From the NCBI RefSeq assembly GCF_050320075.1, contig NZ_CP190018.1: a stretch of 64,000 nt of DNA. The stretch is one strand, 5' to 3'. Numbering within the stretch: the first letter of the stretch is position 1; each line of letters starts with the position of its first letter. Source of the stretch: Escherichia coli (GTDB lineage Bacteria > Pseudomonadota > Gammaproteobacteria > Enterobacterales > Enterobacteriaceae). The translations under genes and the position numbers were made by a program. Below are positions 2,720 to 26,499 of the stretch, piece by piece. The notes under the pieces were generated by a model. It ran no database searches and had not been told where the DNA came from. It was given only the letters and a program-made list of their open reading frames with translations.

Positions 2720-5350
2720 ATGAGCAAGAGCACCGCTGAGATCCGTCAGGCGTTTCTCGACTTTTTCCATAGTAAGGGACATCAGGTAGTTGCCAGCAGC
2801 TCCCTGGTACCCCATAACGACCCAACTTTGTTGTTTACCAACGCCGGGATGAACCAGTTCAAGGATGTGTTCCTTGGGCTCGACAAGCGTAATTATTCCC
2901 GCGCTACCACTTCCCAACGCTGCGTGCGTGCGGGTGGTAAACACAACGACCTGGAAAACGTCGGTTACACCGCGCGTCATCATACCTTCTTCGAAATGCT
3001 GGGCAACTTCAGCTTCGGCGACTATTTCAAACACGATGCCATTCAGTTTGCATGGGAACTGCTGACCAGTGAAAAATGGTTTGCCCTGCCGAAAGAGCGT
3101 CTGTGGGTTACCGTCTATGAAAGCGACGACGAAGCCTACGAAATCTGGGAAAAAGAAGTAGGGATCCCGCGCGAACGTATTATTCGCATCGGCGATAACA
3201 AAGGTGCGCCATACGCATCTGACAACTTCTGGCAGATGGGTGACACTGGTCCGTGCGGCCCGTGCACCGAAATCTTCTACGATCACGGCGACCACATTTG
3301 GGGTGGCCCTCCGGGAAGTCCGGAAGAAGACGGCGATCGCTACATTGAGATCTGGAACATCGTCTTCATGCAGTTCAACCGCCAGGCAGATGGCACGATG
3401 GAACCGCTGCCGAAGCCGTCTGTAGATACCGGTATGGGTCTGGAGCGTATTGCTGCGGTGCTGCAACACGTTAACTCTAACTATGACATCGACCTGTTCC
3501 GCACGCTGATCCAGGCGGTAGCGAAAGTCACTGGCGCGACCGATCTGAGCAATAAATCGCTGCGCGTAATCGCTGACCACATTCGTTCTTGTGCGTTCCT
3601 GATCGCGGATGGCGTAATGCCGTCCAATGAAAACCGTGGTTATGTACTGCGTCGTATCATTCGTCGCGCAGTGCGTCACGGCAATATGCTGGGCGCGAAA
3701 GAAACCTTCTTCTACAAACTGGTTGGTCCGCTGATCGACGTAATGGGCTCTGCGGGTGAAGACCTGAAACGCCAGCAGGCGCAGGTTGAGCAGGTGCTGA
3801 AGACTGAAGAAGAGCAGTTTGCCCGTACTCTGGAGCGCGGTCTGGCGCTGCTGGATGAAGAGCTGGCAAAACTTTCTGGTGATACGCTGGATGGCGAAAC
3901 GGCTTTCCGTCTGTACGACACCTATGGCTTCCCGGTTGACCTGACGGCTGATGTTTGTCGTGAGCGCAACATCAAAGTTGACGAAGCTGGTTTCGAAGCA
4001 GCAATGGAAGAGCAGCGTCGTCGCGCGCGCGAAGCCAGCGGCTTTGGTGCCGATTACAACGCAATGATCCGTGTTGACAGCGCATCTGAATTTAAAGGCT
4101 ATGACCATCTGGAACTGAACGGCAAAGTGACCGCGCTGTTTGTTGATGGTAAAGCGGTTGATGCCATCAATGCAGGCCAGGAAGCTGTGGTCGTGCTGGA
4201 TCAAACGCCATTCTATGCGGAATCCGGCGGTCAGGTTGGTGATAAAGGCGAACTGAAAGGCGCTAACTTCTCCTTTGCGGTGGAAGATACGCAGAAATAC
4301 GGCCAGGCGATTGGTCACATCGGTAAACTTGCTGCGGGTTCTCTGAAAGTGGGCGACGCGGTGCAGGCTGATGTTGATGAGGCTCGTCGCGCCCGTATTC
4401 GTCTGAATCACTCCGCAACGCACCTGATGCACGCTGCGCTGCGCCAGGTTCTGGGTACTCATGTATCGCAGAAAGGTTCACTGGTTAACGACAAAGTGCT
4501 GCGCTTCGACTTCTCACACAACGAAGCGATGAAACCAGAAGAGATTCGTGCGGTCGAAGACCTGGTGAACGCACAGATTCGCCGTAACTTGCCGATCGAA
4601 ACCAACATCATGGATCTCGAAGCGGCGAAAGCGAAAGGTGCGATGGCGCTGTTCGGCGAGAAGTATGATGAGCGCGTACGCGTGCTGAGCATGGGCGATT
4701 TCTCCACCGAGCTGTGTGGCGGTACTCACGCCAGCCGCACTGGTGATATTGGTCTGTTCCGCATCATCTCTGAATCGGGTACTGCTGCAGGCGTTCGTCG
4801 TATCGAAGCGGTAACCGGAGAAGGCGCTATCGCCACCGTTCATGCAGACAGCGATCGCTTAAACGAAGTCGCGCATCTGCTGAAAGGCGATAGCAATAAT
4901 CTGGCTGATAAAGTGCGCTCAGTACTGGAACGTACGCGTCAGCTGGAAAAAGAGTTACAACAGCTTAAAGAACAAGCTGCCGCACAGGAGAGCGCAAATC
5001 TTTCCAGTAAGGCAATTGATGTTAATGGTGTTAAGCTGTTGGTTAGCGAGCTTAGCGGTGTTGAGCCGAAAATGTTGCGTACCATGGTTGACGATTTAAA
5101 AAATCAGCTGGGGTCGACAATTATCGTGCTGGCAACGGTAGCCGAAGGTAAGGTTTCTCTGATTGCAGGCGTATCTAAGGACGTCACAGATCGTGTGAAA
5201 GCAGGGGAACTGATTGGTATGGTCGCTCAGCAGGTGGGCGGCAAGGGTGGTGGACGTCCTGACATGGCGCAAGCCGGTGGTACGGATGCTGCGGCCTTAC
5301 CTGCAGCGTTAGCCAGTGTGAAAGGCTGGGTCAGCGCGAAATTGCAATAA
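2720..5350 (+). CDS. alaS: Alanine--tRNA ligase
   Basis: 876-aa [27 protein letters not shown].., class II aaRS; synteny. Confidence 0.98.
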
Positions 5351-23426: not shown

Positions 23427-23809
23427 AATTCGGTTACTCCTTTACGAACGTTTTCGATATCGCTTTGCGTACCCATGAGTTCAAAACGGTACAGCCACGG
23501 CACGCCGCATTTCTGAGCAATCACATCTCCGGCGCGGCCATACGCCTCACCAAAGTTGCGATTACCCGAAGCAATAACGCCGCGCAGCAACGCCCGGTTA
23601 TGCTCGTCGTTTAAAAAGCGAATGACCTGTCGTGGCACCGCGCCAGCCGTACCGCCGCCGCCGTAAGAGGGCACGATCAGGATGTAAGGCTCGTCTACCT
23701 GAATCCGTTCCCGCTCATTGAGCGGGATGCGCACCGCGGGCAGCCTTAAACGTTCGATAAAACGCTGCGTATTTTCGGAGCTGCTGGAAAAGTAGACGAG
23801 CTGGCTCAT
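23399..23809 (-). CDS. nrdI: Flavodoxin-like NrdI
   Basis: 136-aa ORF overlapping the nrdE start by 28 nt. Confidence 0.93.
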
Positions 23810-24051
23810 GCACTGGCAGCGTGTGGCGCTGGATGCAGACGATTGATCATGTCCGGGCGGAAACCAGACCAGCTAAGATCGCCTGCAATCACAACCGGCA
23901 ACTGACGAAAGCCCTGAGCACGCAGCGCTTCTGCCGCTTCAGGAACGCGATCGACATTAATCATTTCAAAGTCAAAGCCCCGGTTTTCCATCGCCCGTTT
24001 GGTGGCGTGGCACTGAACGCAATCGTTACGAGTGTAAATAGTAATGCGCAT
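23806..24051 (-). CDS. nrdH: Glutaredoxin-like NrdH
   Basis: 81-aa ORF with CVQC redox motif. Confidence 0.93.
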
Positions 24052-24259
24052 TATTCGTATTTCCGTTTAAAATGAAGATACGGCGCGATGATACGCGTCG
24101 GGTTGTCTCTCTGTTGATACAGAGATACTAGATGTAGTTGAAAAAAGATTCAACCATACAAGATATGGGAATTTTAGATTGATTACGCCACCGATGAATG
24201 GCTCAACGGGGTAGGGGATTTTGTGTTTTTTTGCCGGGCGAATACCCGGCATCAAGAAG

Positions 24260-24691
24260 TTACATCCGCATGGAAACGGCCAGACGGTTAAAACAATTCA
24301 TCAGCCCGATGGCAAACGTTAAGTCGCTGATCTCTGCTGCGCTGAAATGCTCAAGCAAAGGCTGATAAACCTCGTCTTCCGCATGGGTTCTGGCAATTTC
24401 GGTTACCGATTCCGCCCATGCCAGCGCCGCCCGCTCGCGTTCATCAAAATGATGGCTTACGCGCCAACCTGCCAGGGCGTCCAGTTTGTGCTGTGGCACG
24501 CCGGATTTGCGCAATGCTTTGCTGTGCATCTCCAGACAAAATGCGCAGCCGTTGATTTGCGAGACGCGCAAATAAACTAACTCCATCAACGTGGTATCCA
24601 GCGTGCTATTTTCCAGTGCCGTTTTGGCCTGCACTAGTGCGTTATACACTGCCGGGCTAAGTTCGTAGTAAGGCTGACGTAATGTAGTCAT
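24260..24691 (-). CDS. Carboxymuconolactone decarboxylase / AhpD-like family protein
   Basis: 143-aa ORF with GCAFCLEMH (CxxCxxxH AhpD-type motif). Confidence 0.7.
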   Translation of the reverse strand: MTTLRQPYYELSPAVYNALVQAKTALENSTLDTTLMELVYLRVSQINGCAFCLEMHSKALRKSGVPQHKLDALAGWRVSHHFDERERAALAWAESVTEIARTHAEDEVYQPLLEHFSAAEISDLTFAIGLMNCFNRLAVSMRM

Positions 24692-24778
24692 ACAGTTTCT
24701 CCTCTTATTAACGCCCGCAATGTAGCACTATAATGGACTGCTAAAGAGAGCCATAAATTACCTAAAAAAGCAGACCAT

Positions 24779-26113
24779 ATGCCGCGCTATCAGGATATCG
24801 CCCGTCAGTTAAAAACGGCTATTGAGCAAGGGGAACTGAAACCCGGCGCAAGGCTGCCTTCAAGTCGTACCTGGTCGCAGGAGCTGGGGGTGTCTCGATC
24901 CACTGTCGAAAATGCGTATGCTGAGCTGGTGGCGCAAGGATGGCTGATCAGGCGGGGACAGGCTGGCACATTTGTCAGTGAGCGGATATATCCGCAACAA
25001 TCTACTGTACAAGTTGTAGCTTTTGCCGGTGAAAGTCAGCAACCGTTGCCATTTCAAATGGGATTACCCGCACTCGATCTCTTTCCGCGAGAGCTGTGGG
25101 CGCGGGTGATGGGGCGTCGCCTTCGTACCCAGACGCGCTTTGATTTGGCGTTAGGCGATGTCTGCGGTGAGGTGGCGTTGCGCGAGGCAATAGTTGATTA
25201 CTTACGCGTTTCACGTGGGATTGATTGTCAGCCAGAGCAGGTCTTTATCACTCACGGTTATGCGGCCTCAATAGCTTTAATTCTGCACGCGCTGGCGAAA
25301 CCGGGAAACGGGATGTGGATAGAAGATCCCGGCTTTCCACTGATTCGCCCGATTGTCACTCGCCATGATGTGGAAATTTTGCCTGTGCCGGTTGATGACA
25401 ATGGACTGGATATCACAAGCGGAATACAAAATTATCCTGATGCGCGTTTTGCCCTGATAACACCAGCACACCAAAGTCCGCTGGGTGTGGCGCTCTCTTT
25501 AGCGCGCAGGCATCAGATACTGGAATGGGCAGATCGTAGTCAGGCATGGATTATTGAAGATGATTATGACAGTGAGTTTCGCTATCACGGTAAGCCGTTA
25601 CCGGCGTTAAAAAGTCTCGACGCACCGCAGCGGGTAATTTATGCCGGAACATTCAGCAAAGCGCTATTTCCTGCATTGCGCTGTGCGTGGCTGGTGTTGC
25701 CAGTGAAGCAAATTGCACAATTCCGCCACCAGGCGTCACTGGCTCCATGTGCGGTACCTGTTCTATGGCAGAACACACTGGCAGACTTTCTTCGCGAGGG
25801 GCATTTCTGGCGGCATCTGAAGAAAATGCGTCAGCATTATGCCCAACGTCGGCAATGGATTGAGCAAGCGTTGACGCAGCAAGGATTTCAGGTTGTGCCG
25901 CAGAAAGGTGGTATCCAGATGGTGATCAGAATGATAGGCGATGATATTGCCCATGCGCGTAAAGCCAATGCTGCAGGCCTTGCGGTGCAGGCACTTAGCG
26001 ACTGGCGTATCCGTTCAAGTGGGGAAGGTGGATTACTGCTCTCGTTTACTAATATCGTTAACGAAGGTATGGCGCGACAGGTAGCACAACAATTACGTAA
26101 AGCCTTAAGCTAA
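24779..26113 (+). CDS. MocR/GntR-family PLP-dependent transcriptional regulator
   Basis: 444-aa ORF: N-terminal GntR-type HTH (ARLPSSRTWSQELGVSRSTVENAY) plus aminotransferase-like domain with GTFSK lysine motif; divergent from the AhpD-like gene. Confidence 0.75.
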   Translation: MPRYQDIARQLKTAIEQGELKPGARLPSSRTWSQELGVSRSTVENAYAELVAQGWLIRRGQAGTFVSERIYPQQSTVQVVAFAGESQQPLPFQMGLPALDLFPRELWARVMGRRLRTQTRFDLALGDVCGEVALREAIVDYLRVSRGIDCQPEQVFITHGYAASIALILHALAKPGNGMWIEDPGFPLIRPIVTRHDVEILPVPVDDNGLDITSGIQNYPDARFALITPAHQSPLGVALSLARRHQILEWADRSQAWIIEDDYDSEFRYHGKPLPALKSLDAPQRVIYAGTFSKALFPALRCAWLVLPVKQIAQFRHQASLAPCAVPVLWQNTLADFLREGHFWRHLKKMRQHYAQRRQWIEQALTQQGFQVVPQKGGIQMVIRMIGDDIAHARKANAAGLAVQALSDWRIRSSGEGGLLLSFTNIVNEGMARQVAQQLRKALS

Positions 26114-26145
26114 AAAACCCCGAAGCCAGGCTTCGGGGTCAAAGA
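26112..26145. terminator. Bidirectional terminator between the MocR-like gene and ygaM
   Basis: Hairpin CCCCGAAGCCAGGCTTCGGGG preceded by AAAAAA, which reads as a T-run on the minus strand. Confidence 0.65.
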
Positions 26146-26169: not shown

Positions 26170-26499
26170 CTACGATTTGCGCATGCTTAACAGTGCGCCG
26201 ATAAAAATACCTACCGCAGCTGCTGTACCCACGCTACACCAGGGTCTTTCACGAACAAAAGAATCCGCGCAGCCAACGGCATCACGCGCGGCTTGCTGGA
26301 CGCGAGTACGACCATGCATTCGCGCCCTGGTTTCTTTCAGTAGAGCCTGCGCTTTACTGCGTGCGGCTTCGGCTTCCCCTTTGGCGTCGCTGCCCCAGGA
26401 CTTCAATACAGATTCGAGGCTGTCAGCTAATTGATTGACATCATTCTGGATATCCTGCACGCCATCATCAACGTCGTTGCGGTTCGGTCGGTTAAACAT
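26170..26499 (-). CDS. ygaM: ElaB/YqjD-family (DUF883) membrane-anchored protein
   Basis: ATG at 26499 has a GGGGGA Shine-Dalgarno and gives 109 aa MFNRPNRNDVDD..; the track ORF starts 4 codons earlier at 26511. Confidence 0.85.
   Translation of the reverse strand: MFNRPNRNDVDDGVQDIQNDVNQLADSLESVLKSWGSDAKGEAEAARSKAQALLKETRARMHGRTRVQQAARDAVGCADSFVRERPWCSVGTAAAVGIFIGALLSMRKS

Follow-up and report, generated by a model that had tools for sequence, protein, structure and literature searches.

A predicted ancestral MocR-regulated AhpD-like gene module between nrdH and ygaM that K-12 Escherichia coli lacks

The stretch of DNA analysed here (the window) is a 64,000-nucleotide segment of Escherichia coli contig NZ_CP190018.1 (assembly GCF_050320075.1), in which two divergent genes lie between nrdH (23806-24051, minus strand) and ygaM (26170-26499, minus strand). 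On the open reading frame list, the left gene (24260-24691, minus strand) encodes a 143-amino-acid protein of the CMD family with an AhpD-like CxxC motif, and the right gene (24779-26113, plus strand) a 444-amino-acid MocR-subfamily regulator. The original prediction had described two well-formed divergent genes with a shared promoter region of about 90 bp. Both proved to be real, annotated genes rather than chance open reading frames, and the divergent promoter/operator region is indeed shared, with a corrected length of 87 bp (24692-24778). A Shine-Dalgarno GGAG stands 7 nt upstream of the CMD start codon (24699-24702, minus strand), and in our locus alignment the corresponding plus-strand CTCC stretch is kept across Enterobacteriaceae. 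Directly past the CMD stop codon lies a GC-rich hairpin (GCCGGG-N6-CCCGGC, 24233-24250), which is followed on the CMD strand by an A-run rather than a T-run and was not called in our terminator scan. When the intergenic regions were scanned by consensus for sigma-70 promoters and for terminators, the only call was the ygaM intrinsic terminator (26116-26140, minus strand), an 11-bp stem with a T-run. It lies 3 bp past the stop codon of the MocR gene and forms the right edge of an indel; in K-12, the empty site is flanked by this sequence as well.

The small protein matches the Pfam CMD family (PF02627, E 3.5e-21) and the AhpD core-domain model TIGR00778 (54.9 bits, cutoff 27.8), and among NCBIfam models its best matches are without exception to AhpD or peroxidase-related families. 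Its motif reads C49-A-F-C52-x3-H56, which, with the two domain matches, bears out the earlier reading of an AhpD-like protein with a CxxC..H signature; we accordingly place it, by motif and domain content, among the AhpD-like CxxC members of the CMD family. The predicted relay residues are E37, C49, F51, C52 and H56, so that four residues of the five-residue pattern Glu, Cys, His/Tyr, Cys, His are present and the middle one is Phe51. Among 65 MocR-linked CMD homologues, C49, C52 and H56 are invariant (65 of 65), position 37 is Glu in 44 and position 51 is Phe in 52. Full-length matches were found to the PA0269 structures (2ijc/2o4d/7xw1, 1e-31), the closest solved relative, and to Atu0492 (2gmy, 7e-30). 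The dN/dS of the gene is 0.03-0.07. The pair does not form a canonical AhpC/AhpD system: the score against the full-length AhpD model TIGR00777 (30.9 bits) is far below the cutoff of 191.95, and the flanks in the window hold no ahpC or lipoamide-system partner gene adjoining the CMD gene. Peroxide may not be the real substrate, because Phe51 replaces the His/Tyr relay residue and the peroxidase activity of PA0269 is already weak. A possible older O157 tag for the CMD gene is Z3974, whose product was pulled down on salicylidene-acylhydrazide resin and was negative in Far-Western assays (PMC3191033); a cluster look-up gave no locus tags, and a search for neighbouring tags found no match.

The regulator carries, in order, an N-terminal GntR winged helix-turn-helix (PF00392, residues 4-66, E 1.4e-17), a linker and a C-terminal fold-type-I aminotransferase-like PLP domain (Aminotran_1_2, PF00155, residues 126-386, E 1.4e-25). 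In alignments, K294 (within FSK; codon at 25658-25660, plus strand) coincides with the FSK lysine of Bacillus clausii PdxR and B. subtilis GabR; it is predicted to form the Schiff base with PLP. Conservation with these two proteins extends to the DDYD motif and R301. A PDB search returned PdxR (7pq9, 1e-62) and GabR (4n0b, 6e-55). The GntR-HTH plus PLP-domain composition first proposed is thus retained together with a conserved PLP lysine, and by its architecture the protein is assigned to the MocR subfamily of GntR factors. The dN/dS of its gene is ~0.1. Our literature search found no experimental work on this regulator group, its only related match being the use of Salmonella STM2804 as a neutral insertion site.

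Sequence reading of the 87-bp region identified two overlapping back-to-back -10-like hexamers (24727-24734), TATAAT toward the MocR gene (24729-24734, plus strand) and TATAGT toward the CMD gene (24732-24727, minus strand). CACTATAATGG and CACTATGATGG at these elements are conserved in Enterobacteriaceae. Neither hexamer has a good -35 element, and the consensus scan found no canonical sigma-70 promoter between the two genes, a result that would fit activator dependence. By phylogenetic footprinting we predict a three-box operator of 46 bp (24733-24778, plus strand), comprising an inverted box ATGGAC (24733-24738), a second box AGCCAT (24749-24754) and, after an A-tract, a third box GACCAT (24773-24778). 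This operator overlaps the two -10-like elements, and its third box abuts the ATG of the regulator. Its consensus, ATGGNC-N10-GNCCAT-N18-GNCCAT, matches once in the window against 0.02 matches expected. Of 79 related loci, 28 share the exact 46-bp span with identical spacing, and these reach from Escherichia to Bradyrhizobium and Sphingomonas. Top-base frequency averages 0.94 in the boxes, 0.71 in the spacers and 0.65 upstream. The intergenic regions of the window and O157 alleles do not differ at all (100% identity), whereas the adjoining MocR genes are 89.3% identical (10.7% different). MocR operators have been described as two to four direct or inverted boxes near the regulator's own gene, with spacing fixed within an orthologous group and two direct boxes plus one inverted as the commonest type (PMC5320631); the window operator, three boxes in 46 bp with the same spacing in 28 loci, answers to this description. 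The layout also fits the PdxR/GabR pattern, in which such a regulator would control both itself and the divergent gene. The conserved operator in the shared region thereby lends support to the original prediction that the pair is controlled by its regulator. We also considered long-range leader-coding pairing, as the regulator reading frame contains perfect complements of 24740-24751 (12 nt) and 24752-24762 (11 nt); these complements show no covariation in O157, E. albertii and Citrobacter alleles and were dismissed as chance.

Alignment to K-12 MG1655 agreed with the original statement that nrdH and ygaM lie much closer together in K-12 and that the pair is absent there: the gap is 247 bp in MG1655 and 2,118 bp in the window. 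BLAST and MAFFT junction alignments place the segment missing from K-12 at 24229-26115, with ~1.89 kb in the window corresponding to ~15 bp (ATTCACCAGGCAAAA) in K-12. Sequence that follows closely on the CMD stop codon is kept in this scar, where half of the GC-rich hairpin also seems to survive as CCAGGC. The locus had been proposed to be strain-variable, and it is: the pair occurs in 1,387 of 5,426 complete E. coli genomes (25.6%), always on the chromosome, and the site is empty in 4,034 (~74%). Occupied examples are CFT073, O157:H7 EDL933 and O55:H7; the empty examples K-12, TO217 and EC1515 share an identical scar. A separate 581-bp deletion removes the 5' half of the regulator in ~111 genomes, FDAARGOS_1372 among them, and in CFT073 the loss of 1 bp changes the CMD C-terminus. 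Beside the main deletion, a ~40-bp patch differs between empty and occupied haplotypes, which points to a history less simple than one recent deletion from today's occupied allele.

Outside E. coli, genes stand in the order nrdI-nrdH-CMD<>MocR-ygaM-ygaC in E. albertii, Citrobacter, Cedecea, Pluralibacter, Shimwellia and Rahnella as well. The pair is still flanked by nrdH and ygaM/ygaC in 18 loci (E. albertii, Citrobacter, Pseudocitrobacter, Cedecea, Pseudescherichia, Shimwellia, Pluralibacter, Enterobacter spp. and Rahnella). This gene order with these neighbours is seen in at least 10 other enterobacterial genera plus Rahnella; putative orthology to other genera is based on 62-77% protein identity and synteny. 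Locus-tag numbering would place Salmonella STM2803/STM2804 at the same chromosomal site beside nrdH. Because this synteny recurs across genera and the hallmarks of mobile elements are absent, the comparison indicates that the pair is an ancestral, vertically inherited enterobacterial module that K-12 and most E. coli lost through one deletion. This amends the earlier picture of the locus, as the module would not be an addition to the window strain.

Two other histories were considered. The pair could be an islet acquired horizontally at the nrdH-ygaM site in the window lineage, with K-12 in the ancestral state, and the 25.6% occupancy, the unusual divergence of the MocR alleles (window versus O157 dS of 0.41, against 0.087 for CMD) and the 40-bp haplotype patch at the junction would all agree with that. 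We nevertheless consider it highly improbable: the same order and neighbours in the other genera, the placement of Salmonella STM2803 in the same orthologue group and the retention in the K-12 scar of post-CMD-stop sequence with an apparent half hairpin all argue for loss. A mobile-element origin was rejected in any case, as the repeat search found no terminal direct or inverted repeats at the segment boundaries, the window gene list holds no integrase, IS/transposase or tRNA target at the locus, and GC content (0.50-0.56) is indistinguishable from that of the flanks. It is similarly very doubtful that the pair is a decaying, functionless remnant heading for loss in E. coli. The 74% of genomes without it, the independent regulator truncations and the altered CFT073 C-terminus speak for decay, but at least 1,276 genomes carry full-length copies, dN/dS within E. 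coli is 0.07-0.11, and alleles that diverged deeply still have the operator in perfectly conserved form. Purifying selection acts on both genes (omega 0.03-0.11), which are intact. The locus is dispensable all the same, since 74% of E. coli lack the pair, the regulator is truncated in ~111 genomes and STM2804 served as a neutral marker-insertion site in Salmonella mouse competitions (PMC3723669).

Gene context bears on the identity of both proteins. Of 78 related loci, 57 have a CMD gene in tight linkage with the regulator: it is divergent and adjacent in 33, part of a divergent operon that also contains GNAT and/or AzoR-like genes in 15, and immediately downstream in 9. Partner genes across these loci are CMD, GNAT, AzoR-like, NmrA-like, DJ-1 and cupin genes, and the AzoR-like, GNAT, NmrA-like and DJ-1 linkage in distant relatives suggests a redox or electrophile response. 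Under the RefSeq name "PdxR", the regulator would instead control B6 (PLP) synthesis or salvage in response to PLP, leaving the CMD neighbour incidental. Its score against the NCBIfam PdxR equivalog NF052282 (408.1 bits, cutoff 320), the standing of B. clausii PdxR as its best solved relative and an operator of the same type as that of PdxR, with two boxes in direct and one in inverted orientation, are what recommend this identity, which we still judge improbable. The PdxR model discriminates rather poorly here, given that the rhizopine MocR model reaches 353 bits as well; no pdx gene adjoins the regulator or appears among the neighbour genes identified in related loci, and in every case the conserved operator stands between the regulator and genes of the CMD, GNAT or AzoR-like kinds. 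To our knowledge E. coli also lacks pdxST, its PLP synthesis running through PdxA/PdxJ. Furthermore, the enterobacterial orthologues have been filed apart from the PdxR groups, in the separate group Spro_3719 with COG2128 as its regulon (PMC5320631). Functional equivalence to PdxR, as the NCBIfam label implies, is therefore not supported by gene context, and the "PdxR" name is probably an over-annotation. The RefSeq family name of the small protein similarly suggests a true gamma-carboxymuconolactone decarboxylase (PcaC) of aromatic catabolism, a notion that has in its favour the match to PF02627, the family named after that enzyme, and that we regard as almost certainly wrong. The protein carries the CxxC-x3-H AhpD motif, which Clarke et al. 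found missing from true gamma-CMD enzymes (PMC3141380), its NCBIfam matches point to AhpD and peroxidases, and no pca or catechol-pathway genes occur near it in the window.

We therefore favour an inherited two-gene module in which a MocR-type regulator is divergent from a PA0269-type AhpD-like CxxC thiol oxidoreductase. By analogy with PdxR and GabR, a regulator dimer would bind the three-box operator and repress its own promoter, and the state of the PLP site would switch binding between pairs of boxes, turning the CMD promoter with its weak -35 on or off. Homology and regulon context suggest that C49 and C52 of the CMD protein would serve to reduce a substrate that is oxidised or electrophilic, for instance a peroxide, a disulfide, a thiosulfinate or a quinone-type compound; an AhpD-family gene alone is enough to confer allicin resistance (PMC7119367). 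The inducer may be a small molecule acting on the PLP site by reaction or binding; GABA is an unlikely candidate, and a vitamin B6 supply signal is probably not one either. Taken together, the identity, ancestry and operator-based regulation of the module are, in our assessment, probable. The physiological role in redox chemistry or detoxification, taken alone and drawn from homology and gene/regulon context, is a tentative proposal to which we give somewhat less than an even chance.

A broader and more speculative extension, which we consider rather unlikely, is that MocR proteins of the Spro_3719/PA0268 type are not B6 regulators but sensors of reactive small molecules through PLP-site chemistry, with targets forming a Proteobacteria-wide stress-defence regulon that was kept in CFT073 and O157:H7 and lost in K-12. 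The PLP-reactive signals might then be an electrophile, an arylamine or quinone-imine, a thiosulfinate or another such compound, and the regulon may comprise AhpD-like, AzoR-like, GNAT, NmrA-like and DJ-1 genes. Cyanide sensing by MpaR has been proposed to run through PLP-site chemistry. If this extension were true, the regulon would be present in UPEC CFT073, EHEC O157:H7 and Salmonella and missing from K-12, the source of most E. coli physiology, and a regulator sensing a reactive compound in this way would offer a simple, genetically tractable entry to a widespread, unstudied MocR stress regulon. The precise 46-bp operator and the natural regulator-null alleles make the module easy to test. 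The finding is correct but ordinary, and the practical value of our analysis is modest: it corrects a likely "PdxR" over-annotation in many RefSeq E. coli genomes and recasts the K-12 nrdH-ygaM arrangement as a derived deletion, not an ancestral state.

Among characterized systems, B. subtilis GabR (4N0B) has the same MocR architecture and shares with the window regulator the PLP lysine, the DDYD motif and the equivalent of Arg319. GabR Arg207 and Arg430 bind the GABA carboxylate; in the window regulator they are replaced by Leu and Asp, which makes GABA an unlikely effector. GabR is an autorepressor and an activator of its divergent gene, and it uses two direct repeats only, whereas the window operator has three boxes. 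The gene for B. clausii PdxR (7PQ9), the best structural relative, is likewise divergent from its target, and in the PdxR operator, which contains A/T tracts, two direct repeats and an inverted one fit within ~48 bp; which of them are bound depends on the PLP state (PMC10450172). The likeness to the window operator is one of repeat layout, and the targets differ: pdxST PLP synthase, missing from E. coli, for PdxR and a CxxC redox protein in the window. On the enzyme side, Mycobacterium tuberculosis AhpD has the CxxC active-site hairpin with a Glu/His proton relay in common with the CMD protein and belongs to the same CMD fold family. It differs in the C-terminal position of its motif, its trimeric state, its encoding beside ahpC and its work with the lipoamide system; its relay has His132 where the CMD protein has Phe51, and the sequence match is weak.

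Closer still is PA0269 of Pseudomonas aeruginosa (2IJC, 2O4D, 7XW1; E 3e-31 at full length), which shares the E-C-x-x-C-x3-H relay residues and has Tyr50 in place of Phe51. PA0269 is a hexamer with weak, Cys-dependent H2O2 reduction that is blocked by NEM (PMC3141380), and it too is listed as a COG2128 target of a MocR regulator (PMC5320631). PA0268-PA0269 represents a sister MocR group whose regulon often adds a cupin (COG1917). The nearest counterpart of the window pair is the Spro_3719 group of Suvorova and Rodionov (2016), with Enterobacteriales members STM2803, CKO_04020, KPN_03002, ECA2654 and Spro_3719; its function was left unassigned and its regulon was predicted in silico as COG2128 (PMC5320631). 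The Pseudomonas member PFL_2191 was assigned a COG2128 + AcpD + GNAT regulon (PMC5320631), an arrangement that we also found in Pseudomonas loci. That survey sampled only K-12 for E. coli, and the E. coli copy, its polymorphism and the scar are absent from it. The regulatory link itself had been predicted in that 2016 study (PMC5320631): the group's regulator is of the type found in the window, and the only target predicted for it is likewise an AhpD-like protein, COG2128.

Between nrdH (23806-24051, minus strand) and ygaM (26170-26499, minus strand), the window carries a divergent gene pair: a minus-strand gene for a 143-aa AhpD-like CxxC protein, hereafter CMD (24260-24691; Pfam CMD family, E 3.5e-21; AhpD core domain TIGR00778), and a plus-strand gene for a 444-aa regulator with GntR winged-helix and aminotransferase class I/II domains, hereafter MocR (24779-26113). 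Both open reading frames lie exactly where the original prediction placed them, and the divergent promoter region it described is present, although 87 bp rather than 90 bp separate the start codons. Its statement that nrdH and ygaM sit closer together in K-12 also holds, the gap being 247 bp in MG1655 versus 2,118 bp in the window. In junction alignments, window 24229-26115 (~1.89 kb) is replaced by ~15 bp in K-12; the right edge of this K-12-absent segment is the ygaM terminator hairpin (26116-26140), and the left edge lies slightly past a hairpin 3' of the CMD stop codon. Across complete E. coli genomes, 1,387 of 5,426 carry the pair, always as a single chromosomal copy, and the site is uninterrupted (empty) in 4,034, which together account for all 5,421 genomes with a flank match. 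From the K-12 alignment and these counts, the pair is therefore not a feature of K-12 and all E. coli, and its original interpretation as a strain-variable module is supported.

The hairpin after the CMD stop codon (24233-24250) is followed on the CMD strand by an A-run and has no T-run, and a terminator scan did not call it; CMD transcripts might therefore run on into the co-oriented nrdHIEF operon, ~200 bp downstream. In Citrobacter, the CMD-nrdH spacer holds longer REP-like palindromes.

The simplest reading of the K-12 difference is a single loss of a module ancestral in Enterobacteriaceae, with the deletion allele now the predominant one in E. coli. Scanning for relatives of the regulator with one genome per species gave 79 loci, which we searched with the window CMD, NrdH, NrdI, YgaM and YgaC proteins. 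In 18 of them the pair has nrdH on one side and ygaM and/or ygaC on the other, spanning E. albertii, three Citrobacter species, Pseudocitrobacter, Cedecea, Pseudescherichia, Shimwellia, Pluralibacter, several Enterobacter-named isolates and Rahnella. Salmonella LT2 has an orthologue too, STM2803, which has been assigned to the same group of orthologues, Spro_3719 (PMC5320631). No terminal repeats were found at the segment ends and no mobility genes within the segment, whose GC content equals that of its flanks. The scar is identical in the three empty-site genomes examined (K-12, TO217 and EC1515), even though their flanks differ by up to 4%.

Occupied sites fall into two allele classes: 1,007 genomes share at least 99% identity with the window over the pair, and 365, O157:H7 and O55:H7 among them, share 90-95%. 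CFT073 is also a carrier, its shared flanking DNA being ~98-99% identical to the window. Between the window and O157:H7 EDL933 (L003, positions 3520-4854 for MocR), the MocR gene shows 89.3% DNA identity (dS 0.41, omega 0.11), the CMD gene 97.7% (dS 0.087), the flanks 95-97% and the 87-bp intergenic region 100%. Divergence is uneven along MocR, and this patchiness suggests old, recombining alleles. EDL933 also has an extra ~94-bp insertion between the shared terminator hairpin and ygaM (L003 ~4880-4975, equivalent to window ~26141) that resembles a REP/BIME-type element (…GATGCGCTATG…GGCCTGTAGGCGGACAAGGCG…).

Beside the deletion junction, a ~40-bp patch (24167-24206, within window 24158-24206) differs sharply between empty (K-12, TO217, EC1515) and occupied haplotypes, and the K-12 version (…ATGAGCGTGACGGGG) is closer to Citrobacter werkmanii than to the occupied E. 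coli allele. The difference begins inside a conserved element upstream of nrdH (window ACAAGATATGG versus K-12 ACAATATATAG), which we interpret as the second NrdR box in the nrdHIEF promoter; on that interpretation, empty and occupied haplotypes could differ in nrdHIEF regulation. Together, the patch and the diverged MocR alleles are signs of old haplotypes that recombine, not of a recent event, and neither suggests foreign acquisition.

With a GntR winged helix at residues 4-66 and a class I/II aminotransferase domain at 126-386, the regulator has the MocR architecture, and it is under purifying selection (dN/dS ~0.1). B. clausii PdxR and B. subtilis GabR have counterparts at the aligned positions of its PLP lysine (K294), DDYD motif and R301. 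The GabR residues R207 and R430, which bind GABA, are Leu and Asp in the window regulator, making GABA an unlikely effector. In many genomes RefSeq labels the protein 'pdxR: MocR-like pyridoxine biosynthesis transcription factor PdxR'; elsewhere it is a 'PLP-dependent aminotransferase family protein', 'DNA-binding transcriptional regulator' or 'aminotransferase-like domain-containing protein'. Identity with PdxR would fit the score of the NCBIfam PdxR equivalog model (408 bits against a cutoff of 320), but the rhizopine MocR model scores the same protein at 353 bits, and no pdx genes adjoin the pair or occur among the neighbours identified in related loci. E. coli is not known to have pdxST, which likewise counts against the label. 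Moreover, the orthologues have been placed in a group of unassigned function, apart from the PdxR groups (PMC5320631). The name looks like an over-annotation produced by an equivalog model whose cutoff is permissive, and on these grounds we treat PdxR as a functional analogue for mechanism, not as the regulator's identity.

Aligning intergenic regions from 22 enterobacterial loci revealed three short conserved boxes separated by drifting spacers: ATGG(A/T)CTGC, GAGAGCCAT and GCAGACCAT. In the window these are the inverted box 1 (ATGGAC, 24733-24738) and the direct boxes 2 (AGCCAT, 24749-24754) and 3 (GACCAT, 24773-24778), with an A-tract between boxes 2 and 3 and box 3 abutting the MocR ATG. 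In 28 of 79 loci the pattern ATGGNC-N10-NNCCAT-N18-GN(C/T)CAT, at its exact 46-bp span, precedes the regulator gene, including Bradyrhizobium, Sphingomonas and a Rhodospirillaceae MAG, and relaxed versions (GCCAA, GGACAT) were seen in Pseudomonas and Burkholderiales. Allowing one mismatch, ATGGNC-N10-GNCCAT-N18-GNCCAT matches once in the 64-kb window against 0.02 expected; over 29 distinct sites, the commonest base has a mean frequency of 0.94 within the boxes, against 0.71 for spacers and 0.65 for upstream sequence. Box 1 overlaps two -10-like hexamers placed back to back (TATAAT facing the regulator gene, TATAGT facing CMD) and box 2 occupies the position expected for the CMD promoter -35; sequence inspection and a consensus scan found no good -35 at either divergent promoter. 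Two direct boxes plus one inverted box form the commonest MocR operator type, seen in 32% of reconstructed regulons (PMC5320631), and the predicted layout is the one studied structurally for PdxR, where the holo-protein binds an inverted pair across ~48 bp of bent, A/T-rich DNA, and PLP alters the choice of motifs bound and abolishes activator function (PMC10450172). By analogy with PdxR, the regulator would repress its own promoter, and the state of its PLP site would determine how it switches the CMD promoter.

Decay of the pair does occur in some E. coli lineages. A 581-bp deletion in ~111 complete genomes (window ~24781-25362; 2010-2022 in the NZ_CP070063.1 locus, L083) arose between short CCAT(G/A)ATG homologies, independently of the K-12 deletion; it removes the regulator's first ~195 codons, converts box 3 to GACCAG and leaves CMD intact, and these strains are natural regulator-null alleles. 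The CMD gene of CFT073 (L086 5623-6108; NC_004431.1 3080623-3081108) has lost 1 bp close to its 3' end, so that a 21-residue tail takes the place of the final three residues (MRM) and the protein is 161 aa long.

The CMD protein carries the motif C49-A-F-C52-L-E-M-H56 and is under purifying selection (dN/dS 0.03-0.07). All 65 CMD homologues linked to related regulators retain C49, C52 and H56; 44 of them have Glu at position 37, and position 51 holds Phe in 52 homologues, Tyr in 12 and His in one. The closest relative of the window CMD protein with a solved structure is PA0269 of P. aeruginosa (E 3e-31 over the full length). This AhpD-like protein forms a hexamer and reduces H2O2 weakly, an activity that thiol alkylation blocks; its relay residues are E36, C48, Y50, C51 and H55 (PMC3141380), and the window CMD protein has E37, C49, F51, C52 and H56. 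PA0269 is itself listed as a target, within the AhpD-like family COG2128, of the neighbouring MocR regulator PA0268 (PMC5320631).

Of 78 loci, 57 have a CMD gene in tight linkage with the regulator, and in more distant members of the group the divergent unit is longer or different: GNAT acetyltransferase, flavodoxin-fold (AzoR/AcpD-like) reductase and CMD in Pseudomonas, GNAT and CMD in Pectobacterium and Pigmentiphaga, and cupin and CMD in an alphaproteobacterial MAG. Loci without CMD in their flanks have an AzoR-like, GNAT, NmrA-like NAD(P)H-binding or DJ-1/PfpI gene. Similar operator-like sequences occur at the CMD-less loci L057, L069, L040, L066 and L081, where the divergent partner is an AzoR-like flavodoxin-fold reductase, an NmrA-like NAD(P)H-binding protein or a DJ-1/PfpI protein; the regulon thus appears modular, built of electrophile/quinone detoxification genes. 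These partners suggest a function in redox or electrophile defence. Two precedents, neither implying orthology, are an AhpD-family gene that by itself gave resistance to the thiosulfinate allicin (PMC7119367) and the P. aeruginosa MocR regulator MpaR, which responds to cyanide, probably via a PLP-cyanide adduct (PMC10790758). It is a tentative and rather doubtful possibility that regulators of the group use PLP chemistry to sense a reactive compound, and that they control a detoxification regulon lost by K-12. A possible lead is the O157 protein Z3974, whose tag number is close to the expected place of the CMD locus, making it a candidate for the O157 CMD gene; a salicylidene-acylhydrazide affinity resin retained it as one of 16 proteins, the redox proteins Tpx and WrbA included, but Far-Western probing gave no signal for it (PMC3191033).

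The locus is an ordinary accessory one, already catalogued: its genes are annotated in well over 1,000 E. coli genomes, and each of four exact protein sequences looked up (window and O157 alleles) occurs in at least 1,000 contigs. In the literature searched we found no experimental study of the Spro_3719 regulator group; Salmonella STM2804 served as a neutral marker-insertion site in mouse competitions (PMC3723669). An in silico study of 2016 had predicted the MocR-COG2128 regulon for Enterobacteriales, with STM2803, CKO_04020, KPN_03002, ECA2654 and Spro_3719 as members of the Spro_3719 group, as was the Pseudomonas variant with AcpD and GNAT (PMC5320631). To that prediction our analysis adds the presence/absence picture in E. 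coli, the direction of the event, most simply read as loss in K-12, the exact operator coordinates with their very wide conservation, and the natural regulator-null alleles.
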